DNA of 21,896 bases from an uncultured virus (IMG/VR IMGVR_UViG_3300023208_000399) (Duplodnaviria > Heunggongvirae > Uroviricota > Caudoviricetes). How positions within the stretch are numbered: position 1 is the first letter of the stretch; every line of letters starts with the position of its first letter. Position numbers and translations under genes: made by a program. Positions 1 to 21,896 of this stretch are shown piece after piece. The notes under the pieces are model-generated. The model saw only the letters and a list, made by a program, of their open reading frames with translations, had not been told where the DNA came from and made no database searches. The stretch lies in the IMG/VR virus record IMGVR_UViG_3300023208_000399. One strand, written 5' to 3'.

Positions 1-897
1 GGCCTTGGCGTCCAACGCCGATTGCAGCCCGGAGACGTTGGCGATGTTGGTCGGGAAATAGGCCGGTTTGTCGGCGATGGCGGACCAAGGGGGCGTCGTG
101 TCGGCCATGGCCCTATAGCTGGACTCCGAAGTCTTGGACCCGCCGAGGAATGACCAGAACACGCCGTCCGACGTGACGACGGTGGAGCCGATGCGGACTT
201 CCGACTGCTGTGTCGATGTCAGCGACGCGATGGTCGATGACGCCACGATGGGGGCTTGGAAAACCGTCGAGGGCAGACGCGCCGGATCGAGCGTCCCGAC
301 CAGACGGGTTGCCGCGAGCGTGTCGGATTTCTTGTCGTAAAGGGTCGGATCGAATGTCGCCGCCAGCGTGGCCGAGGCTGCGGCAGCGGTCGCCTTCTGC
401 GACGCAAGGGCGGCGTTGTCCGCCACCTGTTCAGCGAGGTCTTCCACGACGGCGCGATCCGCCGAGGTGGACTGTCCCGAGCCTTGCGCGAGTTCGGCCC
501 AATAGCGGGCATTCGCCTCGCTCGTGCCCGCGTGATTGCGATGTTGCTGTGCGAGATCGCGCGCTTCGACCGCCGCGCCGCGCGCCGCTTCCGAAAGGAT
601 ACGCTGCGCGTCGGCACGGTTGGCGTGATCGTTTGCCAGATCGCGCGCGAGTTCAGTCGCGACCTTGGCGGCGGCGGATTGCGCCGCCGGGCCGGAGGTC
701 ATGTCGTTGAACGATGCGGGCGACGGCACGAGGATTTCTTGGCCGCCCAAATCCACAAAGGGATAGCGACCGTCATTGTTGGGTCCGCCGGTCGCGGACC
801 CACCCAGCCAAGCAGAGACGGCTTTCGTCTGCTGCTCCGATTTGACGATTAGGTCTTCAATCTGCTGGGCGAGAGTGGTGATCGTCAGCCCGCTCAT
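1..897 (-). CDS. second tail fibre / receptor-binding protein (3' end outside window)
   Basis: Not in the ORF track because it runs off the window. ATG at 897 follows the previous stop; the frame is open to base 1: MSGLTITTLAQQIEDLIVKSEQQTKAVSAWLGGSATGGPNNDGRYPFVDLGGQEILVPSPAS..., then an Ala-rich helical region and PPWSAIADKPAYFP...VSGLQSALDAKA, motifs typical of phage fibre shafts. Lies downstream of the first fibre gene. Confidence 0.75.
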   Translation of the reverse strand, partial: MSGLTITTLAQQIEDLIVKSEQQTKAVSAWLGGSATGGPNNDGRYPFVDLGGQEILVPSPASFNDMTSGPAAQSAAAKVATELARDLANDHANRADAQRILSEAARGAAVEARDLAQQHRNHAGTSEANARYWAELAQGSGQSTSADRAVVEDLAEQVADNAALASQKATAAAASATLAATFDPTLYDKKSDTLAATRLVGTLDPARLPSTVFQAPIVASSTIASLTSTQQSEVRIGSTVVTSDGVFWSFLGGSKTSESSYRAMADTTPPWSAIADKPAYFPTNIANVSGLQSALDAKA

Positions 898-903
898 TCG
901 ACC

Positions 904-1125
904 TTACTCCGTGTCGGGAGCCGGAGCGGTTTCGACCGGAGCCGCCGGTTCAGGCGTTGCGAGTTGGTAGCCGAGTTCGGCGCCTTGAAGGGCTGCGCGG
1001 ACATTCGACAGGGCGATCTTCGTGGTTTCGACCTGCGACATGAGGTGGCCGAGGGAAGCCAGAAGCGATTGCTCCTGCGCCGCGAGGGTCTGGTGCTGCT
1101 GTGCAGCGGAAGGCGTTTGGGACAT
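904..1125 (-). CDS. small coiled-coil hypothetical protein (73 aa), possible fibre accessory or chaperone
   Basis: Start moved to ATG 1125, which has ACAGGAG just upstream. MSQTPSAAQQHQTLAAQEQSLLASLGHLMSQVETTKIALSNVRAALQGAELGYQL is heptad-like with a Pro/Ala-rich tail. Lies between the two fibre genes. Confidence 0.7.
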   Translation of the reverse strand: MSQTPSAAQQHQTLAAQEQSLLASLGHLMSQVETTKIALSNVRAALQGAELGYQLATPEPAAPVETAPAPDTE

Positions 1126-1167
1126 GCGTCTCCTGTGATCGTTTGAGGGTCTTGTATTTAGATGTGG

Positions 1168-1189
1168 GACCGGCCGGTTAAGGCCGGTC
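1168..1189 (-). promoter_or_regulatory. intergenic stem-loop just after the tail fibre stop codon
   Basis: Perfect 8-bp inverted repeat GACCGGCC-N6-GGCCGGTC with no U-tract, so not a classical terminator. Confidence 0.45.
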
Positions 1190-1194
1190 ACTCG

Positions 1195-3390
1195 TCAGGC
1201 CATGATGGGTTCGATGCCGCCACCGCCGCCGCCGCCGGGGTCAGGGTCGTAGCCCCCACCGCCGCCGCCACCGCCAGATGAACCGCCTCCTGATCCAACG
1301 CCGCCGCCGGAGCCGGAGCCGCCGCCGAGGGTCGAGGTGTTGTTCTTCATCTCCGTGACCTTGCCGTAGCGGGCGGTCACGATCTGGGTGGACATGCCGG
1401 AACTGAAGTAGATTTGGACGTAATAGTGCCAGTTGCCAGCCTCACCCGGACGGTCGAGGAACTTCATCGGCAGGGCGCCTTGCCATGTATCGTTCGCCAT
1501 GCCGGAGCCGTTCAGTTGGACGGACTGGATGACGGTTCCGCCATCGGTCCCGCGCGACCGGACAAGCTGCACGACGGCCACGAACGACCCGCTCGCATTG
1601 TGGGTGAATGTCCCATAGGCGTTGAAGTCGATGTCGATGGGGCTGTCGGCTTTTTCGACGCCGATCCAGACGCCGTGAATGCGCGTCGGCGTGGTGTTGT
1701 TGAGGGTGACGGTCCCGCCGTTGTAGGCCGCTTCGACGCCAGTGACAGTGTTGTTGACCAGACGGGAGTTGTTGATTGAGCCGGTGACGAGCAGGTCGCC
1801 GAAGATTTCGACGTTCGAGTTGAAGCGGACCTTGTTCGCGACGACGGACATGATCTTGACCGGCGAGCCGCCGTTCGGCGCGACGAAACCGACTTCATCT
1901 GCCACGAACGAGAGCGACCCGAAGGAGCCGTTGTTCTGGGCCGTAATCCCGGTGATGTGGCCGTTGGAGTTGAGGGCGACGCTCCATCGGAGATTCAGGC
2001 CGTCAGTCACTTGCTGAAGCGTGGTGATCGAACCCGTGTGCGCCCCAACCGTGTTCTGAACGGTCTGGATCGTTTGGGAGAGCGCGCTGTCCGCATTCGC
2101 GCGAGCCGTCGCCTCATTGACGACGGAAGCCGAGACGTTGCCGACTGCGACATCAATCCCCGACAGTCGGGTGCCGAGGCTATAGCCGGGACCGACTTCG
2201 ACCCGGTTCAGGTCGAGGGTGAAGGCGGACTGATTGTTGCGGAAGGCGCCGAGGACAGCGAACTGCTGGGCGATTGCGCCATCGGCGTTCGCCCGTGCCG
2301 TCGCTTCGTTCTGGATCGCGGTCGAGTTCTGCCCGACCTGAACGGCCAGCGATTGCCGAAGCTGGGCTTCGGCCGCATCCGCCGCGACGCGGGCGTTGGT
2401 TTCCACGAGGACGGCCGCGTTGATGAGGCCCGGAATCGAAGCCGACAGGGCGGCGCGCGCGCTGGCTTCCGCCGAGATCGCATCGGCCCGTGTGGTCGCT
2501 TCATTGGCGATGGCCGCTTGGTTCGCGTCGATCCGGCTCCCTTGCGTCTGCAAGGTCTGCGTCACGGAATCTATCGCCGTCACGCGGGCCGTCTGTTCGG
2601 TCTGGATCAGCCCGAGCGCGTTGGCGTTCGCCGCGTAGATCGCGTTGAACCGCTGGGCCATCGTCTCGGTCGGCGACGACTTCAGTTTGTTGAGGTCGAG
2701 GATGAAGGAGAGATTGTCCGCGCTCTTCGCGCCGATCAGGGCGAAGGTATCGACAAGGGCTTGGTCGCCCGAGAGGCGGGCGTTGGCTTCGTTCTGGATG
2801 ACGGTGGCGAGGCCGGTCCCGTCTTCGAGATTGGTCAGAGCGTCCACGACGCCCGTCAGGTTGTCCAAGCGGAAGGCTTGATCGGTCAGCGCGAGGGTGT
2901 TGCCGATGATCTGTTCGGTGGAGAGGTCGATGGTCGCCAGCGCGTCACGGAAGCGATTGAGGGCTTCGTCCCCGAGTTCGGAGGTCAGGATCAGTTCATC
3001 GACAATAGCGTCTGGCGTGGTGACGACGCCGAGGTGATCGCCAAGGCGGACCTGCGCCCGGTCGAGAGAGCCGGTGTAGAGGTCGTCGAGTTCCTGAAGG
3101 CGATAGAGGTTCTGAAGGTGTGCCCGGTTCAGTTCTTCGGCGGTCAGGGTCGCCCCGTTCTGGAACTCCACGAGGGCCGTCGAGATCGGGGTCTCGCGTC
3201 GGATTTGCAGGACGCTGCTTTCGACCGGCGCCTGACGAAGGCGGATGCGGCTGTCGGTCAGCCATTCAAAGAACGGCGTGGAGCCGTTGAGCGTGACCTT
3301 GATGTGGTTTCGGTCGAGGAAGGGAACGGCAAGGTCGAACTCTTGCTGGCCTCCCGTCACGATGTATTGGGCGCGGGTCTGGTTAGACAT
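1195..3390 (-). CDS. tail fibre protein: T7 gp17-type N-terminal anchor, coiled-coil shaft, J-like C-terminal region, Gly-rich tail
   Basis: N-terminus YIVTGGQQEFDLAVPFLDRNHIKVTLNG...IRRETP...EFQNGATLTAEELNRAHLQNLYRLQE matches the T7 tail-fibre attachment domain. Repeated E-A-T-A-R-A-x-A-D units follow. SD AAAGGA upstream; position after the internal virion genes. Confidence 0.9.
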   Translation of the reverse strand: MSNQTRAQYIVTGGQQEFDLAVPFLDRNHIKVTLNGSTPFFEWLTDSRIRLRQAPVESSVLQIRRETPISTALVEFQNGATLTAEELNRAHLQNLYRLQELDDLYTGSLDRAQVRLGDHLGVVTTPDAIVDELILTSELGDEALNRFRDALATIDLSTEQIIGNTLALTDQAFRLDNLTGVVDALTNLEDGTGLATVIQNEANARLSGDQALVDTFALIGAKSADNLSFILDLNKLKSSPTETMAQRFNAIYAANANALGLIQTEQTARVTAIDSVTQTLQTQGSRIDANQAAIANEATTRADAISAEASARAALSASIPGLINAAVLVETNARVAADAAEAQLRQSLAVQVGQNSTAIQNEATARANADGAIAQQFAVLGAFRNNQSAFTLDLNRVEVGPGYSLGTRLSGIDVAVGNVSASVVNEATARANADSALSQTIQTVQNTVGAHTGSITTLQQVTDGLNLRWSVALNSNGHITGITAQNNGSFGSLSFVADEVGFVAPNGGSPVKIMSVVANKVRFNSNVEIFGDLLVTGSINNSRLVNNTVTGVEAAYNGGTVTLNNTTPTRIHGVWIGVEKADSPIDIDFNAYGTFTHNASGSFVAVVQLVRSRGTDGGTVIQSVQLNGSGMANDTWQGALPMKFLDRPGEAGNWHYYVQIYFSSGMSTQIVTARYGKVTEMKNNTSTLGGGSGSGGGVGSGGGSSGGGGGGGGYDPDPGGGGGGGIEPIMA

Positions 3391-6400: not shown

Positions 6401-7383
6401 CGTTCGGCTCGGGGAGCCTCGACGCGCATCGGCAGAGCCGACACCGGACCCTGCTTCGTGGGTCGGAAGGTCCAGTCGTCCAGCGTCAGGGCTGGGAGCG
6501 AGATCGCATCGGCCGTGTCGAGTTCGTCGCGGAAGGTCTGGGACAGGTTCACCGGCTCCGAACGGAGGTCGGCGTCAATGCGAGCGCGGACGGTTCCGCG
6601 TCCCTTCATCAGCGCACCGGCCCCTTCAAACGCGCCAGTGAAGACCGCACCGGCGCCAGCCGAAAGCACGGTCTGGAGAACGTCGTAGCGATCCTGCGTC
6701 AGGCCGGTGGCGTCCATCTGGGCGAGCAGGTCCACGGCCCCGGCGACCGTGGCCTGAACCGCGATCTTGGCGCCGACTGACGAGCCGCCGGTGATGTAGG
6801 ACGTAGGGTCCAGCGCGGCGCCCCCGAGGGTGCCGAGCAAGGCCGCGCCGCCGTGCAGCGTCTTGCCGACGATGCCGCCTTCGGCCTCCCAGAACGGGTC
6901 GTCCTTGGACGCCTGTGCGAATTCCTGACGACGGGTGCGCTCACGGCTAACCCAATCGTCAGCCGCTTCGCGGGTGTTCTGCGTGTCGCGGGTCATGTCC
7001 ATCAGGACGCCGCCCGAGTTGTAGAGGCGGGAGACGAGACGAACCGGGTTCAGGGTGAAGCGGTCATTGACCGCCATGGCGGCTTTCGTATCGCCGCGCT
7101 GTCCTGCCTCGATGTAATCGGCCGTGTCATCCAGACCGGCCCGCCAACCTTCGGCGATGAAGCCGGTGTTGAAGGTATTGGAGAACACGTCGCCGAGACG
7201 TTCGCCGAGGCTGCGCTTGTCCTTCGGAGCCGAGAGGGAGACAGCCGCCGAGCGGCGGCTGTTGTTCTGCTCTGCGGACGTGCCGTAGTGGCGTTGAATG
7301 AAGGCGCGACGGACGTGTTCAGGGGTGCCGTCCTCGAACTCAAAGACGTGCCCGTCAGGGCCGGTGAAGCGGATGGAAGCCAT
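3469..7383 (-). CDS. internal virion protein D (T7 gp16-like large ejection protein)
   Basis: 1304-aa helical protein at the gp16 position, coupled to the upstream gene by a TAATG overlap. C-terminal segments (VPFLRTPLNL, YSIRLGGRWYQYSTLSP, LPERRDWLG) are typical of large internal virion proteins of T7-like phages. Confidence 0.85.
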   Translation of the reverse strand: MASIRFTGPDGHVFEFEDGTPEHVRRAFIQRHYGTSAEQNNSRRSAAVSLSAPKDKRSLGERLGDVFSNTFNTGFIAEGWRAGLDDTADYIEAGQRGDTKAAMAVNDRFTLNPVRLVSRLYNSGGVLMDMTRDTQNTREAADDWVSRERTRRQEFAQASKDDPFWEAEGGIVGKTLHGGAALLGTLGGAALDPTSYITGGSSVGAKIAVQATVAGAVDLLAQMDATGLTQDRYDVLQTVLSAGAGAVFTGAFEGAGALMKGRGTVRARIDADLRSEPVNLSQTFRDELDTADAISLPALTLDDWTFRPTKQGPVSALPMRVEAPRAERMDGPRMDGPEAGPDINPEWTKGISPERLKAVTEHLDRLKAYIKPDQVELFVRWAGKEAVALADDPSPHWNQEIFDFDKLSNEPEKFEEIVGVMAQIFKPLYDAAGDAKKTWKSVADRQAAFGVTVSDVVKAHSDITGENGIAAKMHALETISIQHTDHLVTKMAQLEKSLNGNVIDNNLIGDVAAQLQATVMFDAMAAGAKSEIGRALNIMKMAKQRSRIINDLQGQMDLMADALGTGDLDAKKMAEALKRLREAYGSGGERGLKDELRKGRHMGFSDYLSYYIVAGYLTTPATAVRNAVGSVLHASMTVGERYIAAGITSPLRRGLGGKRTSAEGVTFREANAYLFGIHQSFVDATKAGFKAFIHAAPQTDIETSVGRYAMAQPFEFNAERVKKWKEGGIKSVPDMAMTGLFGTLRTLGIRPSLGMDEFTKVMTRRMQINALAAREASYRSARLRGSEADRVFAKTLEAVTQRPTAEAFVRAKSEFEATGEIYDPAKSYMGDARLEEAADVLASVDLHEMANDYARLMAFQKTGPAVEAFEKAMKYIPIVKALYVPFLRTPLNLVRAGMVDRNPALAWLTKENRAAFKTYFAALDGQEKALSRGGAEADIVMARMVSGMALMGTAAMLFANGDLVGKRTPAEEEDGVKSYSIRLGGRWYQYSTLSPVAEMIGITADLYQTMRDRDLADDQASALAGGVMGAIMNNIVNKAALQGVGDFFDLLDPSFSTTASSRGTAVAKAAFKKLGDSLVPAIVRNTAQAQDPVMREASEFLDYFARNIPMLSDSLPERRDWLGLPIVRKDKDGGFIEALVQPLRVSEREDDMVRLEISALAQNDPDLLMATRPDARFNGQKITPKEHARLLAIQGQEWRDPMTGLNMHEALAELVNSADYASYSDPRRAQEIKDTVSRYRRLATAAIKRGEFPDMAPMLDRTGAAQAQDMGEKKGWEPYRIENKARSYGVSDDALADIMNFGAD

Positions 7384-9560
7384 TAGTCTCCTTGGATGAT
7401 GTTTCCGTTCCTATCGACGCGCGTGACACCGCCAGCACTGGCGGTCTGGGTTGAGCCGGGGGCGCGGGTGTTGCCACCGCCCGGCGGGGCGGCTGCACGT
7501 TGAGTCAGTCGGGGGGTATATTCAGCAATGATGTCGTCGGCCGCTTTCATGGGGGCGGCGCCTCCTGCGACGCGGCGTTCCCATTCGATCAGGGCTTCGG
7601 CGCCGATGCGGCGACGTGACGGCGGGGCGCCTTCGCCGACGAGTTGGCCGAGAGCCGAGCCGACATAGGATCGGGCGACAGTCGCGGTGCGACGTTCCTC
7701 GGGCGGGACGCTGGCGGTCTGACGAGAGCCAGCGGCCACACGTTCCTTCACCGCCAGATAGGCGCGGGTCGCATTGCGTCCGGTCCCGAAACGTCCCGCA
7801 TTGTAGTCGCGATCTGCTTGGGCGCCGATGCTGGCGTAGTTGGGTTCGGCCGTGGCGAAGCGGCTGGCGTAGTTGAGAGCCAAGTCCTCGTTAGCCTCGC
7901 CGTCCGCGACATCGTTGCGGAGGCTGCGGAAGGCGCCGCGCATGGTCATGGCCTCGCCGGGTTCGAGAACCCCGTTGGCTGCTGCGGTCTGGATCGCCTC
8001 GTCCACGTTCTCGCCGCGAAGCGAGCGGTTGTAGAGGTCGATGGTCAGGTCGTCCTTGGCTTCCACACGCGCCTTTTCGGTGCGGCGTTCGGTGTCGGCC
8101 TCGACGCCCTCAATCGCGTTCAGGACGCGGATTTGCTGGGCCGAGGTCAGAACCGAGGCGCCCGGTGCGCGAGCGCGCCGTTGGGCCGGGGTTTCTGCAT
8201 CCGCGACTTCGACGGCTGGAGCCGCCGGGTCTGCGGCTGCGGTCTGCGCCGGTTGGCCGACGATGGAGCGCGGGTCGATGCGGCGCCCTTGAGCGTCGCG
8301 AGCCGAGAAGTGAAGGTGCGGGCCGGTCGAGTTGCCGGTGTTGCCGGAAGCGGCGAACGCCGTGCCTTGCGACACGCGATCTCCTGCCTTGACGGTGATC
8401 GTGTCGAGGTGGGCGTAGCCGGTCACGCGACCGTCTGCGTGACGGATCAGGACGGTGTTGCCGCCCCGTCCACGCGGGCCAGCGAACTCCACGACGCCAT
8501 CCGCCGGTGCCACGACGGGCGTTCCAATCGGAACTGCGATGTCGATGCCGCCGTGATCGGTGGATGCACCACGAAGCGGAGCGCGGCGGGAACCGAAGCC
8601 CGAGGTCACGCGGCCTTCCAGCGGCATGATGTAGGTCGAGGCGGGAGCCGGAGCAGCCGGAGCCGGTTCGGGTTCAGCGACGACGGACGGAAGCGGCTGG
8701 CCTTCGATCACCGCACTGTTCGCGTTGGCGCGAGCCTCTTCGATTTCGGCCGCCACATCTTCCGGGCGACGGGTGTCGATCAGCGAGTAAAGGCCGGATA
8801 GATCGCCGGTCTGGGTGGCGTAGGCGACGACGGCGTTGACGACTTCCTCTTGGACGGCGACGCCATCAAGGCCAGCCTCTTTCAGGCGGCGCACGGTTCC
8901 GAGAAGGTCGATGCCCTCGCCACGGCCCAGCGCGGCTTGAACCTCGCCGGTCGTCATTTCGAGCATTTCGCGGTCGGTGCGCTCTTGCAGGACGCCGGAT
9001 GCGCGAGCGTTCAGGTCGTTCGACCAACGCTGCATCCGCTGTCCGACCTGAAGGCGGACCTCCGGGCTTTCGAACAGGTCGCTGACCTCGCCGATGAAGG
9101 CCGAGGATCGCTCGTTCATGTAGGTCTCGATGTCCTCGACCGTCGCGCCGTTCTGGATCAGGTCGTCCAGACCTTGGGCGGTTTCCGTCTCGAACTTCGT
9201 CTGACGGTTGGACGCCGTGACGCTGTAGTAGGCGCGCTGATAGGCGGTAGCTTGGGCCTTGGCCGGGTCCATTTCGACACCGGCAAGGGCGTCGGTCGTG
9301 CCCTGTGCGAACTCGCCTTCGGCCCGCTTGGCGGTCTGGGCGATGTCGTTGCGGAAGTAGGCTTCGGCTGCGTCCTGCGTCTGGCCGAAGAACCGGCGAA
9401 GTTCGTCGAGATTGTTGCCGCGCTGGGCGTCGCGCATCGAGGCGTTGATGCGAACCGGGTCAACGCGATCTTCGCGGCGGGTCGGGAGGATCGCATCACG
9501 GTTGTTGGTGATGCGGTCTTGCGTCGTGCGACGCTGGGATTGTCTGGAAAGGTCGGCCAT
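7383..9560 (-). CDS. internal virion protein C (gp15 position) with an internal M23-family peptidase domain
   Basis: 725 aa, syntenic with gp15. The segment at about 8260-8633 carries M23/LytM motifs HGGID (HxxxD), YAHL and GNTGNSTGPHLHF (HxH). Confidence 0.88.
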   Translation of the reverse strand: MADLSRQSQRRTTQDRITNNRDAILPTRREDRVDPVRINASMRDAQRGNNLDELRRFFGQTQDAAEAYFRNDIAQTAKRAEGEFAQGTTDALAGVEMDPAKAQATAYQRAYYSVTASNRQTKFETETAQGLDDLIQNGATVEDIETYMNERSSAFIGEVSDLFESPEVRLQVGQRMQRWSNDLNARASGVLQERTDREMLEMTTGEVQAALGRGEGIDLLGTVRRLKEAGLDGVAVQEEVVNAVVAYATQTGDLSGLYSLIDTRRPEDVAAEIEEARANANSAVIEGQPLPSVVAEPEPAPAAPAPASTYIMPLEGRVTSGFGSRRAPLRGASTDHGGIDIAVPIGTPVVAPADGVVEFAGPRGRGGNTVLIRHADGRVTGYAHLDTITVKAGDRVSQGTAFAASGNTGNSTGPHLHFSARDAQGRRIDPRSIVGQPAQTAAADPAAPAVEVADAETPAQRRARAPGASVLTSAQQIRVLNAIEGVEADTERRTEKARVEAKDDLTIDLYNRSLRGENVDEAIQTAAANGVLEPGEAMTMRGAFRSLRNDVADGEANEDLALNYASRFATAEPNYASIGAQADRDYNAGRFGTGRNATRAYLAVKERVAAGSRQTASVPPEERRTATVARSYVGSALGQLVGEGAPPSRRRIGAEALIEWERRVAGGAAPMKAADDIIAEYTPRLTQRAAAPPGGGNTRAPGSTQTASAGGVTRVDRNGNIIQGD

Positions 9561-14697: not shown

Positions 14698-15549
14698 TTA
14701 GAGCAGCGTTCCTGCTGCTTGTGAGCGAGCGACCTTCGCCGCGACCTCTGCCACAAAGGCACGGTCGGTCTGGTATCGGTCGGTCTTCATCGCGGCGACC
14801 ATTTCCGATTTGGATCGGAACACGTCACCGACTGCGGTGCCCGGCATCGACTCGACGAACGAGCCTTCGGACGGACGAGCCGCCTTGTATTTCGCCACCA
14901 ACCATTCGATGCCTTGAGTGGCGGTCGTGGGGTTGGAGACGAGGGTGTTGTAGCTGTCGATCTCCGCTGCGGTCAGGGACTTTGAAGCCCAATCCGTTGC
15001 AGCGTCGAAGACATCCTCGCCGCCCGCCGTCGCATGTGCCTGTTGGAATGCGAGTTGGGACATGGCCGACAAACCGGCGAGGTAGTTTTCTACGACGGAC
15101 TGCGGGACGCCGAGCTTCACGATCTCTGCGATCTGATCTTCGGCGGGTTGTCCCTGCGTCTCTTCGTAGTGTTTGGCGAATGACTCGAACGCGGTCGTGA
15201 CAGGGTTGGCCTCGACTTGTGCCGGGGTCTCTTCCGTCGCCGGTTTGATGGTCAGGTCGTTAGGCTTGGCCGCTTGGTCAGCGGGCTTGTCCTCGGGCTT
15301 CGCAGCCGACTTCATCTTCTCCAGTTCCGCGTAAGACTTGGCGAGATCATCGACGCGGATCGTGCCCGCTTCTGCATCCCAGAACTTCTCGGGGATGTGG
15401 GCGGGGCGTTCCGGCTTGGCCGGGGTTTCCGGTGCCGACAGGGAGTCTTTGTAGGTCGAGGGGTCTGCACCCTCTGGGAAGGCCGACGCCGGAATCTGCG
15501 AATAGTCAGCGGGCGTGGTGGTCTCTGTGACCGGGCTTTCGAGGCTCAT
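14698..15549 (-). CDS. capsid assembly scaffolding protein (T7 gp9-like)
   Basis: ERPAHIPEKFW, DLAKSYAELEK, AGGEDVFDAATDWA and FRSKSEMVAAMKTDRY motifs; lies between portal and capsid. Confidence 0.94.
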   Translation of the reverse strand: MSLESPVTETTTPADYSQIPASAFPEGADPSTYKDSLSAPETPAKPERPAHIPEKFWDAEAGTIRVDDLAKSYAELEKMKSAAKPEDKPADQAAKPNDLTIKPATEETPAQVEANPVTTAFESFAKHYEETQGQPAEDQIAEIVKLGVPQSVVENYLAGLSAMSQLAFQQAHATAGGEDVFDAATDWASKSLTAAEIDSYNTLVSNPTTATQGIEWLVAKYKAARPSEGSFVESMPGTAVGDVFRSKSEMVAAMKTDRYQTDRAFVAEVAAKVARSQAAGTLL

Positions 15550-17069
15550 TAAGTTCCTTGGTTAGGGTCTTGGGTAGCCGCGCCGATGGCGGCTTCCGCG
15601 ATGGCCGGGGTCGCGGCTTGCATGGCCTGTTGCGCCATGGCTTGCTGCTGCTCTTGGGCCATTTGTTCCTCCGTCTTCAGGAGGGTTTCGAGGCTTGAGA
15701 CACCGTGTTCATTGCCAAGGCGGCTCAAGAACGACGGGGCGTTCACGAGGCTGGCGAAGACTTGCGGCGTCAGGATTTGGATGGCGTCGGCGGCGAACGT
15801 GCGGAGGCGGTTGACCTCAGCGGCTCGACCAAGCGCAGCCAGACCCGTCACGATCTTGGGACGGATGCCGTCAGGGATCGGGGGGATGAGGTTTCGCTGT
15901 GCGGCGACGTAGAGATAGCGCGACGCAATCGGCTGCTGGAGTTCGGAAGCCAGCACCGAGAAGGAGCCGCCCAAGCCGTTCTCCAGTTCTTCGGACTGGC
16001 TGCGGATTTCCTCGGCGGTGACGCGCTCTGCATTGCGGAATTGAGTGACGAGGAAGGCTTCCTTCACCCGCGCCTCAATGGTCATCGTCACGTCTTTGAT
16101 GACGGCAAAGTCCTGCGACTTGTTCAGACCGAGCGTCTGGATCGCATCAGGCTCGCCATAGAGGTAGTCGCCGGATTCAGCCGCCGCGAGTTCTGCGACA
16201 TCGAGCGATGAACTCGGATTGACGACCGTGACCACGCGCGAGGCGATGGCCGCGAACTGCGTGATGGCCTTGTAGTTGTCCTCCATCGACAGGAGGTCGC
16301 CGAGATATTCGGTGATGTGGCTGCGGCCGTAATCGCTACCGGGAACGACGCTCCAGCGGGGCGCAAGCCAACCGGCCTGATCGGTCGGGATGGCGTCCGA
16401 CTTCGTGCCGGGGACTTCCTTGCCTTCGATCTCTTGCCAGTGGGTGACGAGGCCGTCGCGCTGTTCGACGACGGTGTAGACATCGACCTGCTGCTCATCC
16501 TTGTTCGGGTCCAGCTTCACGCCGAGGGCGGTGCGAACGGCCTCGGGAAGCGTGGAAGGCCAGACCTTCTCTTGGATGATGATGTCGGTGAACTGACCGT
16601 AGTTGTCTCGCTTCAACACGAACTGGTCGATGCGATAGACGCGAGGCGCGCGGTCCTGCGGCAGGTAGCCGACGACGTTGCCCGCTGCGATCAGTTGCTT
16701 GATGATTTCGCCCAGCGCGGGACGAACCTTGAGGTCGTCCATCATCGCGGCGGTCGTTTCGGCGACCTGCGAGAGGCGGGTGTCTACGTTGTTCTTGTCG
16801 GCCTGAAGCTGCGCCGCCGCGAAGGCGTCGAGTTCCAGTCGGAAGAACTGAACCGATGTCGGGAACAGGGTCGAAAGCAACCGGGCCGACAGGCTGCGGA
16901 GGCCGTGGGCGCCCGCCGACTGATAGGGTTGGCTCGGGGTGTAGTGTTCGTTCTGGCCCGGCTCTGGGATCAGGCCGGGAATGGTCAGGCGCGATGCTTG
17001 ACGCGCCTTCTCCAGAACGGAGTTGCGAGCAACAGACAGCGCGCTGAAACGCGCTGCTGCGGTCTTCAT
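15549..17069 (-). CDS. portal / head-tail connector protein (T7 gp8-like)
   Basis: 506 aa; PYQSAGAHGLRSLSARL, GSDYGRSHITEYLGDL, RNAERVTAEEIR and IVTGLAALGR motifs. Confidence 0.96.
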   Translation of the reverse strand: MKTAAARFSALSVARNSVLEKARQASRLTIPGLIPEPGQNEHYTPSQPYQSAGAHGLRSLSARLLSTLFPTSVQFFRLELDAFAAAQLQADKNNVDTRLSQVAETTAAMMDDLKVRPALGEIIKQLIAAGNVVGYLPQDRAPRVYRIDQFVLKRDNYGQFTDIIIQEKVWPSTLPEAVRTALGVKLDPNKDEQQVDVYTVVEQRDGLVTHWQEIEGKEVPGTKSDAIPTDQAGWLAPRWSVVPGSDYGRSHITEYLGDLLSMEDNYKAITQFAAIASRVVTVVNPSSSLDVAELAAAESGDYLYGEPDAIQTLGLNKSQDFAVIKDVTMTIEARVKEAFLVTQFRNAERVTAEEIRSQSEELENGLGGSFSVLASELQQPIASRYLYVAAQRNLIPPIPDGIRPKIVTGLAALGRAAEVNRLRTFAADAIQILTPQVFASLVNAPSFLSRLGNEHGVSSLETLLKTEEQMAQEQQQAMAQQAMQAATPAIAEAAIGAATQDPNQGT

Positions 17070-17078
17070 GCGGTGGGG

Positions 17079-17384
17079 TTAGACTTTCGAAGAGAGGGTT
17101 CTGTTCGTGATCGCCAGCGTCGGACGCATGGTCGTCAGGTCGGTCAGGCTGGAGCCGGAACCGACGCCTGATCCGCCGGTGACAGGCGGCGTCGAAGGAA
17201 CGGGGCTGACGGTTGGGTTTCCAGTCGTCGCGGTGCCCGTGGCCTTACGGATAGTCAGCGAGCGGACGCCGCCCTGACGGGCACGAACCACGGCATCAAG
17301 ACCGTCGAGGTAGGGGTTGCGAAGGATGGGTGCGTCGGCCGCGACGGGGGCTGAAACCACCTTCGGTTTCTTGAAGAGGCACAT
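17079..17384 (-). CDS. small virion protein, T7 gp6.7/gp7.3-like
   Basis: MCLFKKPK N-terminus and GVRSLTIRK segment; immediately upstream of the portal; SD AAGGAG. Confidence 0.7.
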   Translation of the reverse strand: MCLFKKPKVVSAPVAADAPILRNPYLDGLDAVVRARQGGVRSLTIRKATGTATTGNPTVSPVPSTPPVTGGSGVGSGSSLTDLTTMRPTLAITNRTLSSKV

Positions 17385-17396
17385 GGGGCGATCTCC

Positions 17397-17615
17397 TTAA
17401 AGGGCGTTCGGCCGCTCAAGGGATCGCTCGAACTGGCGTTTGATCTGGCGCGCGAAGTCGCGGCGGCCAGCGGCGAACATCACTTCCTCAATCGTCTGGC
17501 CGGGGCGCGGCATCGGCTCCGGGCAGTGCTTGTCGAGCCAAAGTATCAGGTCGGGGATATTGGTCGGGAAGGTGTTGTCCGCACCGTGGGCGGTGGGCTG
17601 ATGACGGTCGCTCAC
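17397..17615 (-). CDS. conserved small hypothetical protein of T7-like phages
   Basis: LILWLDKHCPEPMP...EEVMFAAGRRDF resembles small proteins found upstream of portal genes; GTGA overlap with the previous gene. Confidence 0.75.
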   Translation of the reverse strand: MSDRHQPTAHGADNTFPTNIPDLILWLDKHCPEPMPRPGQTIEEVMFAAGRRDFARQIKRQFERSLERPNAL

Positions 17616-17797
17616 GCGGCGGGCTTGTCTTTCCAGACGATGGAAACCACGCCGCCAACAGCGGCGCCGACTGCCAGTGCGACATCGACAAGAGCCGGAT
17701 CAATGACGATGCCGAAGGCGGTCGCGAGGGCGACGAGGCCGACGTAGGTGCTGCGCTCTTTGAGGCGCGGGAGGATGTAGTCGCGGACGAAATTCAT
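17612..17797 (-). CDS. putative holin-like small membrane protein
   Basis: 61 aa with RLKERSTYVGLV, two hydrophobic stretches and a charged C-terminus (WKDKPAA). The function is inferred. Confidence 0.6.
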   Translation of the reverse strand: MNFVRDYILPRLKERSTYVGLVALATAFGIVIDPALVDVALAVGAAVGGVVSIVWKDKPAA

Positions 17798-17823
17798 GGC
17801 GTCAGCCCTTTCGAGAAAATGGA

Positions 17824-18240
17824 ATGGGAAGGGGCATCCGCGTTAAATACGGGATGCTGAAATCAGAGGGCCGGTGGGCCGAGAAGATCGAAGGACTGCT
17901 GGCGCCCCACTCGATTGAAGAGGAGGCGCCCGCTCCACGACTTCTCAAAGAAGACGAAGGCGGCTGTGCCTACTGCGGGAACGAGCTTCCGCTATCGAGC
18001 CAAGCCAGAAGGTTCTGCAATGATCGCTGCAAGGTGATGGCCGCGAAGCGACGCTCGGTCGGCATGCCCGAGGCCAGAGGCACGGGCCTTGAGGTCACGA
18101 CCAAGTGCGCCGGATGCGCTGCTGACTTCACCTACTTGCGGGTCGGCAAGCCGAGACTGACGTGCAGCGAACGGTGTCAGCGTGTGGTGTCGAACCGAAA
18201 GAGACAGGCCCGACGACATCATCAGTCCCCCACATCCTGA
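17824..18240 (+). CDS. antisense-oriented protein with two Cys4 zinc-finger-like motifs (start could be ATG 17854)
   Basis: CAYC-x12-FCNDRC and CAGC-x14-TCSERC, each followed by a basic helix. Confidence 0.65.
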   Translation: MGRGIRVKYGMLKSEGRWAEKIEGLLAPHSIEEEAPAPRLLKEDEGGCAYCGNELPLSSQARRFCNDRCKVMAAKRRSVGMPEARGTGLEVTTKCAGCAADFTYLRVGKPRLTCSERCQRVVSNRKRQARRHHQSPTS

Positions 18241-18454
18241 ACGCCAGTGCGCCTTTGGGATCGGCAATCGAGATCAGGGTTCCGCCGGTAGGCTCGCGCC
18301 CCATGATGTAGAGGTCGTTCCAATCGTGCTGGATGCCCTGCGACAGGAGCCAAGCTGACGCCTCGTCGGCCAAGTCTGTCGGCATGAGGAAGTGCGCGGC
18401 GTCCGACTGCATCGGCCGGGCCAGCGCGACGAAGACTGACGGATCAGGCTTCAA
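18128..18454 (-). CDS. hypothetical protein
   Basis: TTG start overlaps the upstream TGA stop (TTGA). The first about 75 aa look protein-like; the 3' 113 nt overlap the convergent zinc-finger ORF. Confidence 0.55.
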   Translation of the reverse strand: MKPDPSVFVALARPMQSDAAHFLMPTDLADEASAWLLSQGIQHDWNDLYIMGREPTGGTLISIADPKGALAFRMWGTDDVVGPVSFGSTPHADTVRCTSVSACRPASR

Positions 18455-18759
18455 TCAATCCGGCGCAACTCGCCGTCAGCATAGTCGCGGATCGCTTGGA
18501 CGTGGACGGTGTGCGGGCCTTCCGCCGTCGAGAGCATTCGCTTCGCGCTGTTCAGGGCGTCATGACCGTCGATGCCAATGGCGTCGGAGATCACGGCTGC
18601 AACCAGAAACAAGGCCCGGACCTGATCCGAAGGATTGGCGTCTTGTATGCGCGAAAGCAGTTCGAATGCTGGCTCGCGCAGGATGGCGACCGTCGAGTCC
18701 GTGCGGACGCGATCACCGATTGAGGGAAGAGGGTTCATGGGATTGGTTCGGTTGTTCAA
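18451..18759 (-). CDS. conserved hypothetical phage protein (start may be ATG 18738)
   Basis: Helical protein (AFELLSRIQD...QVRAL...AIRDYADGEL) directly after the RNAP gene and co-oriented with it. Confidence 0.75.
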   Translation of the reverse strand: MNNRTNPMNPLPSIGDRVRTDSTVAILREPAFELLSRIQDANPSDQVRALFLVAAVISDAIGIDGHDALNSAKRMLSTAEGPHTVHVQAIRDYADGELRRID

Positions 18760-18774
18760 TAGCGGGCTGACGGC

Positions 18775-21195
18775 TCACGCGAACAGGTAATCAGAGCGTC
18801 GAACGCTCTGGATGTCGAAGTCGCCGAGGTCTGGAACCGGCGGGATTTGGTCGGCCCACTCGGGCGGTAGCTGCGAAACGAACTCTTCGCGGAAGACCTC
18901 AAGCCAGTTCGTCTCGTAGAGATCGGCGAAGGTGTTGCGGAGGATGCTTTGAAGCTCTGAAGCTCGCGCCGCGTGGACCCCGAAACTGTCGTGGACCACG
19001 GCCAACGAACGGATGTCGTGGTCGTAGCAGCGGTTGGCCACACCCATGAGGTGCGAGGCGTCCATGCTGTGGATCAGGTTTGGGCTGATGCCGTTGGCCT
19101 GACGTTTGGAGTCCAGCTTGCGTTGCTCGATCTTGGTTTCGAGCCGGATGCGCTGGCCCTTATATGTCACCACCACCCGGCCGGTCTTGCGGCTGGCGTA
19201 TGTCTGGAGAACCGGGAAGCCTGTCGGCGCCGTCCAGCGGATCGGGACGCCAGCTTTGGTCATGATCGACGCCACAGTTCGCAGCCACGCCATGGCCTCT
19301 GCGGCGGCGACGACCGTGCCCTGAACGCCGTCCCAGATTTCGGCCGCCATGTAGCGCGCGGCCAGATAGTTGTCGGCGTCGAGGTAGGGCTGACCCTCGC
19401 CGTCGATCTCGCGAAGGGTCTGGAGGATTTGGTCGCAGTAGCCGTATTTCGTGGCCGAGTAGGTGAAGGTCATCACCGGACGCTTGGTGATCTTGCGCGT
19501 GACCTTGTTGCCCTTCCACGCCGTGGCGTCGGGGTCGTAGCTGTCGTTGACCTTGGCCTGAACGTCGCGGGCGACATCGCTGTAGATGTCCTGCGGACGG
19601 TCGCCCGGTTCGAGGTTGACTGCCTTGGCTCCGATGGGATCGCGGAGCATTGCGCTGAAATGCTGGAGGCCGGAGTTCGACCCGTCGAGGCTGACAGGCA
19701 GATGGCTGATGAAATCGGCGCCCTCGTTGATGTAGCCCGCCCATTCCATACAGGCGGCCAGAGCCATGAAGGGGCTATCGGCCGTGGCCCAGAACCGTTG
19801 CCCGTCGAGGGGTTCCGCTGCGCTGTCGAGGATGGCGGCTTGGTTGGCGTGAACCCATTGGACCCGTTCTTCGAACGGAACCTTGTCGATGCCGAACAGA
19901 CCGGCGAGGTGGATCGCCAGCCAGCGGGCGCCGTCATGAGTGATCGGCTCGCCCTTGGCGAAAGTCAGGAGAGACTTGGCGACATCATCACCCTGCGGGT
20001 TCGGCCCGCCGGTGGACAGCGGATAGACGCGGCCTCGGAAATCCACCGAGTGTGGGAAGAAGATTTCTTCCTCGTCGGCGAACTTCGTCGCGACCCAGAG
20101 GCGTTGCGATAGGGCCAGCCGCTGGCTGACGTTCTTGGCGTTGAGGTCGTGGATGTCCGACGCCTCGCGCTTCCAGCGGTTGGCGGCCTCTTCGTTCTCC
20201 GCATAGTCCGCCGGACGTGGCGGGATCGGCTGCGGATTACGCGCCGGGAGATCGCCGAGGACGCCGCCGCCGTCCCAGATTTCGCGCATGATCGCGAGGA
20301 TGGGTGGGTTGATCTTCCACGCCGTCTCCTGCACCGCGTTCACGGCGTCATAGACGCCGGGCATCATGTGGTCGCGAAGCTGATCGTGATAGGCGGCGTT
20401 CGCCTGTTTCACGAGACGGTTGCCGGGCTGCTTGGTGACGTAGCCGCCCTTGAATGGCGACGACCAACGGCGCGGACGCACGATCATAGGAAGGTTGATC
20501 GGCTCCAGCAGTTCGCAGCGGGCGTGTTGCTGCTCCAGCCATTTGTGAACGGCCTCGGTCGGGCGGACATACTTGGTGCGCTGGCCTTGGCTCTCGATGG
20601 CGAACAGGCCGGTCGCATCGCAGAACAGTTCGATGGCCTTGACGCCGGTGCGGATACGCATGGCCAGCGGGAACGACTGATCCACGCCGTGTTCGGTCAT
20701 GACGTTCTGGATTTTGCGCTTCATCTTGGCCGAGCGGACGCCGTGCGCCTGAACGCGGAGGACGCCTTTGAAGACATCGGCGCGGGCGCGGCGAAGGGTC
20801 TCCATCTGGCCGTGCTCGATGATGGCGTCGGCGACGGCGATGGCGGTCGCGGTCAGCTTCTTGCCTTCGGCTGCGGCGGACAGGATCACGCGGCCGGTCA
20901 GATAGGCGGCCTCTTCGGCGCCGACACTGGAGAGGATCAGAGCAGCTTCCGGGGTGCGGGCACCGCCGCCGTGGTTCACGATGTCGCAGAACGACCGGAT
21001 CGCTTCGGCGGTGGGCTGGATGGCCAGACGCAGTAGCTGACGGCCGGGAGGCAGGTCGCCTTCCTCGTCCGTGCTGGAGGGTTCATGTCGCCACGGTAGC
21101 GGGCGGCGCGCACGATATCGGCTGGCGCCGAGCGCACGGCTCTCGTCCTCAAGCGCGATCTGTCGCGCCAGTTTGTCTTTGAAGGCTTCTCGCAC
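18775..21195 (-). CDS. single-subunit T7-type DNA-dependent RNA polymerase
   Basis: 806 aa with DFRGRVYP, motif A (LDGSNSGLQH), motif B (RKITKRPVMTFTY), PNLIHSMDASH and motif C (VHDSFG), all intact. An in-frame TAG two codons before the GTG limits the ORF. Confidence 0.98.
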   Translation of the reverse strand: MREAFKDKLARQIALEDESRALGASRYRARRPLPWRHEPSSTDEEGDLPPGRQLLRLAIQPTAEAIRSFCDIVNHGGGARTPEAALILSSVGAEEAAYLTGRVILSAAAEGKKLTATAIAVADAIIEHGQMETLRRARADVFKGVLRVQAHGVRSAKMKRKIQNVMTEHGVDQSFPLAMRIRTGVKAIELFCDATGLFAIESQGQRTKYVRPTEAVHKWLEQQHARCELLEPINLPMIVRPRRWSSPFKGGYVTKQPGNRLVKQANAAYHDQLRDHMMPGVYDAVNAVQETAWKINPPILAIMREIWDGGGVLGDLPARNPQPIPPRPADYAENEEAANRWKREASDIHDLNAKNVSQRLALSQRLWVATKFADEEEIFFPHSVDFRGRVYPLSTGGPNPQGDDVAKSLLTFAKGEPITHDGARWLAIHLAGLFGIDKVPFEERVQWVHANQAAILDSAAEPLDGQRFWATADSPFMALAACMEWAGYINEGADFISHLPVSLDGSNSGLQHFSAMLRDPIGAKAVNLEPGDRPQDIYSDVARDVQAKVNDSYDPDATAWKGNKVTRKITKRPVMTFTYSATKYGYCDQILQTLREIDGEGQPYLDADNYLAARYMAAEIWDGVQGTVVAAAEAMAWLRTVASIMTKAGVPIRWTAPTGFPVLQTYASRKTGRVVVTYKGQRIRLETKIEQRKLDSKRQANGISPNLIHSMDASHLMGVANRCYDHDIRSLAVVHDSFGVHAARASELQSILRNTFADLYETNWLEVFREEFVSQLPPEWADQIPPVPDLGDFDIQSVRRSDYLFA

Positions 21196-21407
21196 CTTCT
21201 ACTTATCATGGGAGCGCGGAGGCTTAACGCCGGGCAGAACCGACGACGCGCAACAACGCCCATAATTGCGTTGACCACATCTTCCTTGCTGTGGCACATA
21301 GGGGTTCTCACCAGCCACAGGAGGCCGCTATCCAAACCCTGTTTTCAATTGAGGAAATGGGTGACTCAGAGCAATCGTTTGGCAGACCCGTAAAAGGACC
21401 GCCAAAG
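21196..21407. promoter_or_regulatory. divergent control region with candidate operators and sigma70-like elements
   Basis: CAACGC-N8-GCGTTG (21254-21273) encloses CATAAT and overlaps TTGACC (21271-21276); also CCACA-N10-TGTGG (21275-21294) and CTGTGGC-N18-GCCACAG (21289-21320). Confidence 0.55.
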
Positions 21408-21896
21408 ATGCCCCGTCGCCGCAAATCCTCCGAAGAACTTCAAGGCTCTGTCGTCGAGGGCATCGACCTCAAGGCGCCGAGCCGCCTCAAGGAAGGGGCG
21501 GGCCAGTTCATGGCTCTGGCGAAGGCGTTGCAGATCATCGCCTACGAAATCCCGCCGCGCACATCGCTGCGCCAAATCTACGCCTTCGCGCTGATCGTCG
21601 AAGCCAACAGCCTCGGTAAGTCGATCATCATCAGCGACCTCAAAGAGATCGCGGGCGCCGACAACACGGGCGAGCCGATCTTCGGCCAGTCCATTGGCCG
21701 GTCCTATCAACTGCTCATGGAGCCGACCAAGCGCGACCCCGATGGGCTGGGCTGGATCAAGCTCGAAACCGACGAAGACGACCAACGCCGCAAAGTCATC
21801 CGCTTGACCGAAAAGGGAGAAGCCATCGCAAACCAACTCCGTCGAACCGTAGCCACTGGACAGAGCAAGGACGGAGACCATGACGTATCAGGCTAA
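21408..21896 (+). CDS. MarR-like winged helix-turn-helix transcriptional regulator
   Basis: ATG 21408 has AAAGGA upstream. SLRQIYAFALI...GLGWIKLETDEDDQRRKVIRLTEKGEAI contains the MarR-type wing signature D-x-R-R-K-x-x-x-L-T-x-K-G. Confidence 0.8.
   Translation: MPRRRKSSEELQGSVVEGIDLKAPSRLKEGAGQFMALAKALQIIAYEIPPRTSLRQIYAFALIVEANSLGKSIIISDLKEIAGADNTGEPIFGQSIGRSYQLLMEPTKRDPDGLGWIKLETDEDDQRRKVIRLTEKGEAIANQLRRTVATGQSKDGDHDVSG
21880..21896 (+). CDS. probable start of the next gene (truncated by the window end)
   Basis: GGAGA followed by ATG ACG TAT CAG GCT, overlapping the end of the regulator gene. Only five full codons are visible. Confidence 0.4.

Follow-up and report, generated by a model that had tools for sequence, protein, structure and literature searches.

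T7-like phages are, in the textbook view, self-sufficient and strictly lytic viruses with one-directional genomes, and temperate members that carry a MarR-like regulator and an integrase have been recognized only recently, with the control of the phage polymerase by that regulator still being a hypothesis. In phage LUZ100, the genes of a MarR-like regulator and a tyrosine integrase share a transcript, and the regulator has been proposed to repress the phage RNA polymerase (RNAP), such that blocked RNAP expression would leave the middle and late genes unexpressed; the article on this phage credits the MarR-based lysogeny model to Boeckman et al. 2022 and reports that no stable LUZ100 lysogen was obtained (PMC10134795). 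Caulobacter phage S2B is described as a functional temperate member of the Autographiviridae (PMC9145550), and Rhizobium phage Pasto (MT708545.1) as lysogenizing Agrobacterium (PMC10134795, PMC9145550). Here, we describe a 21,896-nucleotide (nt) stretch of DNA (hereafter, the window, meaning the whole stretch analyzed) from an uncultured virus of the Caudoviricetes (IMG/VR record IMGVR_UViG_3300023208_000399), in which the gene of a T7-type RNAP lies back to back with that of a MarR-like winged-helix regulator.

We favor, with a probability of roughly 0.7, the reading that the window belongs to an integrated temperate T7-like phage of a Brevundimonas-type host, in which a MarR-like repressor gene and the RNAP gene have a spacer in common and a T7-type replisome is lacking. 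This reading builds directly on the identities of the genes, their layout and its conservation, the boundaries of the element (attachment, or att, sites), the distribution of a short motif, and the lack of recognizable replication genes. The window corresponds to bases 1949-23844, reverse strand, of one 47,480-nt virus record (contig C1; the C1 coordinate equals 23845 minus the window coordinate), from which everything reported beyond the window is taken. The record is classed as linear in IMG/VR with a CheckV completeness of 100 and has no exact terminal repeat, and the window represents the left two-fifths of a ~43-kb temperate T7-like prophage whose relatives sit in Brevundimonas genomes. 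For comparison, we used the record itself (G0), seven related genomes (G1-G7, of which G1 and G2 are sister Brevundimonas prophages with RNAPs 91% and 60% identical to that of G0, respectively), and 18 related loci from the collection of viral contigs (IMG/VR). The control region contains the following features (window coordinates; aa, amino acids; ORF, open reading frame):

18775..21195, minus strand: single-subunit T7-type RNAP, 806 aa (phrog_414, 2.3e-237)
21196..21290, no strand: divergent control spacer, 95 nt long up to the regulator GTG, or 212 nt up to the conserved ATG (21408)
21221..21240, no strand: 20-nt block on the RNAP side, largely conserved in 7/7 aligned spacers and unique in the record
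21266..21275, plus strand: 10-mer TTGCGTTGAC, candidate operator of the MarR-like regulator, from its distribution
21291..21896, plus strand: MarR-fold (predicted) winged-helix regulator, 201-codon ORF from the GTG at 21291
21880..21896, plus strand: first 17 nt of a tyrosine integrase gene (397 aa; phrog_1, 3.3e-43), the rest being at C1 772-1965

The RNAP gene is the uppermost minus-strand gene in the window, as the first-pass annotation of this DNA had it. Its product matches Pfam RNA_pol (1e-114, 384 bits) and aligns end to end with T7 RNAP chains (7.5e-122), the alignment covering the DGS..SG, TKR, Y, HDSF and C-terminal FA positions, and its ratio of nonsynonymous to synonymous substitution rates (dN/dS) against the relatives is 0.12-0.16. 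The best RNAP matches in the phage collection were S2B (MN857473.1; 52.7%) and Mycobacterium phage jiawei (OR464703.1; 51.5%). On the opposite strand, the winged-helix gene noticed upstream of the RNAP encodes a protein that matches phrog_9665 ("transcriptional regulator", 4e-9), and nearly all of the PDB matches that Foldseek listed for its AlphaFold model (mean pLDDT 81.6, pTM 0.72) were MarR-family chains (MarR, MexR, SlyA, OhrR and similar; probability ~1.0, E-values 1e-3 to 4e-2). The predicted fold is of the MarR type; there is also a weak match to the MarR-family gp10 of LUZ100 (28% over 54 aa, pairwise E-value 1e-5), and the MarR-like gene is present in all eight genomes (G0-G7). The plus-strand gene that had appeared to be coupled to the regulator turned out to be that of the 397-aa tyrosine integrase, whose start codon lies at 21880 and which overlaps the regulator by 17 nt, an arrangement by which the two genes are predicted to be translationally coupled. 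The integrase scores 46.9 bits against Pfam Phage_integrase (PF00589; cut-off 27.1), and the R..HxxR..H..Y residues can be discerned by eye in its translation (ACRKGEAL, HTLRH, GHSS..RYGH).

The start of the regulator is ambiguous. Public gene calls place it at the conserved ATG (21408; 162 aa), the 26 codons ahead of this ATG show dN < dS in four comparisons, an invariant AGGAGG sits 5-6 nt before an ATC or ATT codon near the start, and one relative (L029) is without an ATG at the EEM position; these features hint at a non-ATG start or a translated leader.

The divergent pair recurs well beyond this record. The regulator lies directly upstream of, and divergent from, the RNAP gene at 9 of the 18 related loci (L020-L025, L029, L030 and L034), which represent seven distinct sequences with regulator identities of 64-99.5%. 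As for the other loci, the upstream sequence is too short to judge the junction at five, a co-directional serine recombinase lies ~2 kb upstream of the RNAP at two, a host DUF72 fragment is found upstream of the RNAP at one, and the last is a distant locus (RNAP 36%) with a co-directional tyrosine integrase. That the junction might be an assembly chimera, or the regulator gene unrelated host DNA, had been named at the outset as a way in which the initial reading could fail, and the sequence is a metagenomic contig that is classed as linear. The same junction on nine related viral contigs contradicts this possibility, as do a 951-nt contig from another, independent study that covers regulator, spacer and RNAP with a single difference, contigs of 53.8 kb and 8.6 kb from two sequencing runs that cross the junction with zero differences (possibly from the source sample), and the regulator homologues that adjoin an integrase in S2B, jiawei, G1 and G2. 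A 6.5-kb stretch was also found whole in 14 lake-water runs, which may include the source sample and are thus not independent. Taken as a whole, a spurious junction or a stray host gene is extremely improbable, and we consider a chimera excluded for practical purposes.

The flanks, which it had been suggested should be annotated for an integrase and att sites, hold both: past the window end lies the tyrosine integrase, and a 12-nt repeat bounds the element at its two ends. That is, the 12-mer TGGCGGAGACGG occurs in C1 at positions 665-676 and 43615-43626 only. Eight copies of the heptamer CGTGCCA are found within 186 nt just inside the right TGGCGGAGACGG, and an inverted pair of the same heptamer between the left TGGCGGAGACGG and the integrase, compared to ~1.8 copies expected per 9.5 kb. 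Contigs of a different study (runs X15 and X16, whose label as RNA is a guess; the sequencing runs were used as assembled contigs, and these two for junctions, not as expression evidence) match C1 at ~99.8% on the integrase side, with the likeness ending exactly at C1 665. G4, whose integrase is 92% identical, shares the heptamer pair and the 12-mer after its integrase, with a different flank beyond them, and G5 carries the same 12-mer after its integrase; altogether, the integrase end adjoins three different flanking sequences. We interpret the two TGGCGGAGACGG copies as the attL and attR sites of a ~43-kb prophage, with arm-type sites for the integrase beside them; these repeats, along with the host-like flanks, show the integrated state. 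ARAGORN found no tRNA or tmRNA at the ends and Rfam gave two chance-level microRNA matches only, so the att core does not lie in a recognizable tRNA. In contig order (C1 coordinates and strands), the element and its surroundings read:

66-602, plus strand: PAP2 phosphatase gene
772-1965, minus strand: integrase
1949-2554, minus strand: regulator
2650-28329, plus strand: RNAP through large terminase
28326-31502, minus strand: seven genes after the terminase
31500-34200: island of lower G+C content with an XRE-type regulator and a receiver-domain protein
34222-35931, plus strand: small gene and ArdC-like gene (ArdcN and zincin domains)
to 43358, plus strand: further accessory genes
43695-47471, minus strand: unrelated phage-like genes past attR

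About 15 kb of accessory genes lie between the terminase and attR. The element departs from the unidirectional gene order typical of T7-like phages, in that the regulator, the integrase, a 138-aa ORF (below), the seven post-terminase genes (C1 28326-31502) and a DUF892 gene are all encoded on the opposite strand.

The second feature that sets this lineage apart is what it lacks. The first-pass annotation had seen no replication genes in the window, which is borne out and extends to the whole record and its relatives. PHROG and Pfam scans of the 24 window ORFs recognized no DNA polymerase, primase, helicase, single-stranded DNA (ssDNA)-binding protein or ligase, and the only nuclease-labeled matches in the window were weak ones of the 138-aa ORF to HNH-endonuclease PHROGs (E-values 2.5e-4 to 5.6e-4). 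Six-frame searches with PF00476 (family-A DNA polymerase) and PF03796 (DnaB-type helicase) returned nothing in the record or in any of five relatives (CheckV 97-100%); PF00476 did detect its positive controls, namely S2B, a distant T7-like contig, and one copy per host genome. Scans of the accessory ORFs of the eight genomes (Pfam, PHROG and NCBIfam), to which very remote homologues would be invisible, likewise gave no replicative function, the matches being to methyltransferases, UmuDC, recombinases, HNH nucleases and regulators. A 458-aa P-loop protein of G1 and G2, absent from G0, has no Pfam or NCBIfam match and only a PHROG of unknown function.

S2B has ~11 kb between RNAP and portal, encoding a DUF2815 protein, RusA, lysozyme, primase/helicase, DNA polymerase and exonuclease, and jiawei has ~11 kb of replication/lysozyme genes before its portal; in the lineage studied here, the RNAP-portal gap is 1.5-2.3 kb at 14 of the 15 related loci that have both genes (the fifteenth, with an RNAP of 36% identity, has 8.5 kb). 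The 102-aa ORF directly after the RNAP is 54% identical to the S2B stretch 36294-36578, shortly downstream of the S2B RNAP gene, and the N-terminal part of the 101-aa ORF next to the portal matches S2B in the region that immediately precedes its portal gene. Since these homologues bracket most of the S2B replication block, the difference between S2B and the element amounts to approximately one contiguous block. Besides the virion block, RNAP, regulator and integrase, only the small gene and the ArdC-like gene are common to all eight genomes, so that, apart from the small gene, the ArdC-like gene is the only other conserved non-structural gene; the C-terminal part of its protein gave no usable match in the ESM Atlas. 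We infer that the lineage is one without a T7-type replisome, whose DNA would be copied by host enzymes, possibly with an unrecognized initiator.

Alternatively, the missing genes might mean that the element is defective, helper-dependent or domesticated, having lost the T7 replication and lysozyme module and now either riding on a helper or packaging DNA for its host in particles of its own, as the first-pass annotation had also suggested. In favor of this possibility, no DNA polymerase, primase, helicase, ssDNA-binding protein or initiator was recognized in the record or its seven relatives, PHROG and Pfam scans recognized neither a holin nor a stand-alone endolysin (the one exception being a Peptidase_M23 domain within an internal virion protein), and the phage collection holds no isolate with such a layout. 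However, the T7-type virion and packaging set is complete (portal, scaffold, capsid, tubular tail proteins A and B, internal virion proteins, fiber domain and terminase), the RNAP is full-length with its catalytic positions aligned, and the integrase has its catalytic residues as well as att sites. Moreover, dN/dS is 0.08-0.23 overall for the RNAP, portal, large terminase (TerL), ArdC-like gene, integrase and 102-aa ORF (p102), and hence these genes are not decaying remnants. The same integrase end at three flanks, together with sister elements in another host gene, points to ongoing mobility. Known satellites (PICI, P4-like and capsid-forming PICI) are without most virion genes, gene transfer agents, which package host DNA, are not known to have an integrase or att sites, and many temperate phages depend on host replisomes. 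We therefore consider a satellite or domesticated particle element unlikely, and the temperate T7-like phage the better of the two initial suggestions, given the integrase coupled to the regulator, the att sites, and the junction conserved in relatives and in an independent study.

The evidence that bears on how such a phage might be controlled comes from the spacer. The alignment of seven distinct relatives reveals invariant blocks, among them GTCAACGCAA (the reverse of TTGCGTTGAC), which is invariant in 7/7 spacers, while the 20-nt block at 21221-21240 is a possible promoter or operator of the RNAP gene. Four copies of TTGCGTTGAC are present in the record, compared to a mean of 0.045 in shuffled sequences: in the regulator/RNAP spacer, upstream of the small gene, inverted between the small gene and the ArdC-like gene, and beside the integrase end. 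G0, G3, G4, G5 and G6 have three to four copies each at the same syntenic places, compared to zero copies in G1, G2 and G7, which have the other regulator type. The ArdC-like protein of G6 (68% identical to that of G0) is no closer to G0 than those of G1 and G2 (70%), so the motif goes with the type of regulator rather than with the similarity of the ArdC-like proteins. In G1, a different 14-15-mer occurs twice in the ArdC operon and once upstream of the regulator gene, and G2 has another repeated motif at syntenic places, including a perfect 10-N6-10 palindrome at the G2 regulator, part of this motif overlapping ribosome-binding sites. This co-variation of motif and regulator is the best, if indirect, sequence-based indication that the regulator may control both its own/RNAP spacer and the ArdC-like operon.

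Two further observations concern these motifs. The two inverted TTGCGTTGAC copies at the small gene (C1 34235-34244 and 34487-34496) are exactly 252 nt apart in G0, G3, G4 and G5 and 331 nt apart in G6; the constant spacing in the former may merely result from how similar the small gene is among them. Also, CAACGC-N8-GCGTTG, which we considered as a second inverted arm in the spacer, is present here and is not conserved in the six other spacers, and was rejected.

Based on these data, and by analogy with LUZ100 and other temperate T7-likes, we infer the repressor role of the MarR-like protein, the identity of its operator and the route of replication as follows. The MarR-like protein would act as the lysogeny repressor by binding the spacer shared with the RNAP gene, at or beside TTGCGTTGAC; repression would keep the phage RNAP off and, with it, all RNAP-dependent late genes silent, and the same repressor would control its own regulator-integrase transcript. 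With TTGCGTTGAC on either side of the small gene that precedes the ArdC-like gene, that operon would be the second repressed arm. Because attP lies on the far side of the integrase rather than between the integrase and RNAP genes, the repressor gene remains next to that of the RNAP in the prophage. At the T7 primary origin, replication is started by phage-RNAP transcripts; copying by the host replisome might here be started in the same manner, or by the ArdC-like protein acting as an ssDNA-binding protein. This fuller model, in which a T7-like temperate lineage without its own replisome uses one MarR-type repressor at two places (RNAP spacer and ArdC-like operon) and is copied by the host replisome, is clearly more tentative than the favored reading, and we offer it as a possibility that may well not hold in all its parts. 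The lambda-like, two-armed switch that had been imagined for this locus stands in part: the 10-mer shared by the spacer and a second operon fits repressor control, with more than one arm, but the divergent arm consists of just two genes and ends at attL, and it does not amount to an early arm of the lambda kind.

It is also conceivable that the MarR-like protein is not the master repressor, and instead tunes integrase expression or excision, or senses a small ligand (MarR proteins are typically ligand-responsive), with the XRE-type protein (C1 31627-31992) or a helix-turn-helix (HTH) protein (C1 28709-29164) holding the RNAP off. An ORF of the XRE family with RstR-/DicA-like matches (~1e-12), an HTH_23 protein downstream of the terminase, and the one TTGCGTTGAC copy that lies beside the integrase end, near attL, would all be consistent with such a scheme. 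Nonetheless, the XRE and HTH genes are missing from G1, G2, G6 and G7 whereas all eight genomes have a MarR-like gene, nine loci have a common spacer between the MarR and RNAP genes, and the motif co-varies with the regulator type. Hence, control by another repressor appears improbable to us, about as much so as a defective element, and we favor the MarR-like protein as the repressor of the phage RNAP.

Several observations weigh against an autonomous temperate phage controlled in this way. Excision or free phage DNA was not seen in the runs, which are assembled contigs; no isolate with the divergent layout is in the phage collection; and the absence of a recognized replication initiator, endolysin or holin weakens the case for autonomy. 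With respect to the regulator, the TM-scores of its fold are just 0.4-0.5, and it falls below every curated MarR-type hidden Markov model cut-off in Pfam and NCBIfam (e.g., HTH_27, E-value 0.038 and 14.7 bits with a cut-off of 22.2, and NCBIfam HpaR, 16 bits with a cut-off of 121), and the XRE-family ORF, in the island shared with G3, provides a second repressor candidate. As to the operator, TTGCGTTGAC is not palindromic, MarR dimers usually bind palindromes, and the motif holds a TTGAC that resembles a -35 element, so that it could be a promoter element instead of an operator. A simple consensus scan gave no sigma-70 promoter-like sites in 16900-21896, including the spacer, terminator-like sites in the same region were at chance level only, and a search of the intergenic regions turned up no repeated phage-promoter consensus (the best pairs agree at 16/18 nt and form no family).

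The stretch between RNAP and portal, which had been described as only a few small ORFs, does contain five small minus-strand ORFs, but a conserved ORF on the plus strand interrupts the same-strand block. Its features, together with two virion genes, are (window coordinates):

18451..18759, minus strand: 102-aa ORF directly after the RNAP, 57-96% identical in G1-G7
18128..18454, minus strand: 108-aa small ORF, in 7/7 relatives (39-86% identity)
17824..18240, plus strand: 138-aa zinc-ribbon ORF, found in relatives by tblastn
17612..17797, minus strand: 61-aa ORF, hydrophobic by eye, which may be a membrane protein; in 6/7 relatives (50-89% identity), no match in G4
17397..17615, minus strand: 72-aa small ORF, matching phrog_6575 and phrog_4970 (both of unknown function), kept in 7/7 relatives
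17079..17384, minus strand: 101-aa small ORF just upstream of the portal, conserved in G1-G7
15549..17069, minus strand: portal (head-tail connector), the first large virion gene after the RNAP (phrog_449, 6.4e-143)
7383..9560, minus strand: 725-aa internal virion protein with a Peptidase_M23 domain (profile match, 4e-32)

By tblastn, the 138-aa ORF is found on the plus strand in G1 and G5 (69%) and in G4 (43% over 140 aa, 7e-24), and in part in G2, G3, G6 and G7; since it is conserved there, the RNAP-to-portal stretch is not purely one-stranded. It has two CxxC-type zinc-ribbon stretches, is antisense to its neighbors and overlaps the end of the 108-aa ORF, and its matches to DUF2116, YacG and HNH-associated PHROGs are weak and sub-threshold; the AT skew flips sign over window positions 17000-19000, around this ORF. 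The 108-aa ORF gave no family match in PHROG, Pfam or NCBIfam scans.

The portal, 58-94% identical across the seven related genomes, is followed on the minus strand by scaffold, capsid, tubular tail proteins A and B, internal virion proteins, a fiber and the start of a second fiber. The first fiber carries the T7 tail-fiber N-terminal domain (PF03906, Phage_T7_tail), and the packaging genes include PF22530 (Terminase-T7 RNaseH-like) and PF11123 (DNA_Packaging_2). The second fiber (855 aa; window 1-897, minus strand, continuing to C1 25515) has a C-terminal endosialidase-chaperone (Peptidase_S74) domain and is 41-88% identical to those of relatives, i.e., far more variable than the neighboring virion genes, as expected for host-range genes. 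The Peptidase_M23 domain of the 725-aa protein is the only cell-wall-degrading function recognized in the element. Farther along, the island at C1 31500-34200, which also encodes the response-regulator receiver-domain protein, has a G+C content of ~0.50-0.54 compared to 0.62-0.66 elsewhere and is common to G3 only. The genes at C1 43695-47471, including a small ORF that by eye resembles an AlpA-type HTH, DUF6197 and an HNH nuclease, occur in none of the seven relatives and probably represent a neighboring mobile element.

The lineage offers a compact test case for the proposed control of the phage polymerase: a short spacer containing invariant blocks is common to the repressor and polymerase genes, and the candidate operator is found again at a second operon and differs between repressor types. 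It further indicates that the T7 chassis of virion genes and RNAP can occur in a genome that lacks the T7 replisome, which bears on the origin of the family from temperate ancestors and on the choice of its hallmark genes. Orthogonal sets of repressor, RNAP and promoter could also serve as parts of gene circuits.

How, then, does this arrangement compare with known ones? In the lambda-type immunity region, the genes of the repressor and of the silenced cro are divergent, and lambda-type repressors carry a peptidase domain. The element resembles lambda in having a repressor gene and a would-be silenced gene back to back over a short spacer, with the motif recurring at a second operon. It differs in that the gene to be silenced would be that of the phage RNAP instead of cro, a Cro-like antagonist was not identified, the presumed repressor has a predicted MarR fold with no sign of a peptidase domain, and the leftward arm comprises the regulator and integrase only.

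Among the sister Brevundimonas prophages, G1 and G2 share with the element the same RNAP and small ORFs, the portal-terminase synteny, the lack of a T7 replication block, and the operon of small gene and ArdC-like gene. Unlike the element, they have the RNAP at the prophage end against a host DUF72 gene fragment and the regulator-integrase pair ~39 kb away at the other end, co-directional and beside a large serine recombinase; their regulators are 45-48% identical to that of the element. In G1 and G2, integration thus parts the RNAP from the regulator-integrase unit. In G1, the DUF72 fragment beside the RNAP corresponds to the N-terminal part of the gene, and in G2 to the C-terminal part (L005 and L006; stretches L014-L019), and because different parts adjoin the RNAP, the two insertions seem oppositely oriented relative to the DUF72 gene. 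Both prophages also have umuDC-like genes and a double DNA methyltransferase, and their tyrosine integrase gene adjoins that of the large serine recombinase.

As for the described phages, S2B, the nearest isolate, is similar to the element in its T7-like virion/terminase genes and in that a regulator homologue (gp057c, 50.5% over 103 aa) lies directly upstream of a tyrosine integrase, but all S2B genes are annotated on one strand, with regulator, integrase and RNAP being co-directional; that is, relative to S2B, the regulator-integrase pair of the element is inverted and the 11-kb block is absent. Phage jiawei, like S2B, has a homologous regulator-integrase pair upstream of its RNAP gene and co-directional with it; by RNAP, regulator and layout, this phage (L053) is a close counterpart of S2B and the Brevundimonas elements, and its host label may need a check. 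LUZ100 also has a MarR-like regulator and a tyrosine integrase next to the phage RNAP, whereas its regulator, integrase, terminator, phage promoter and RNAP are on one strand, replication genes follow the RNAP, and the sequence likeness of the two regulators is marginal. In Pasto, as in the element, a winged-helix/HTH gene overlaps a tyrosine integrase upstream of the RNAP, and the early region holds an anti-restriction gene; in contrast, all of these genes are co-directional and an ssDNA-binding protein gene follows the RNAP (first 14 kb of the record). The divergent orientation is thus absent from the four described genomes inspected (S2B, jiawei, LUZ100 and Pasto), and we found no literature description of it or of a T7-like phage that lacks replication genes of its own in a search whose coverage excluded the Boeckman 2022 survey and the S2B paper. 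While a MarR-like regulator and an integrase beside the RNAP have already been described for temperate T7-likes in co-directional order, as stated in the LUZ100 article (PMC10134795), what is new in the element described here is the inverted orientation of this pair, combined with the missing replication module.

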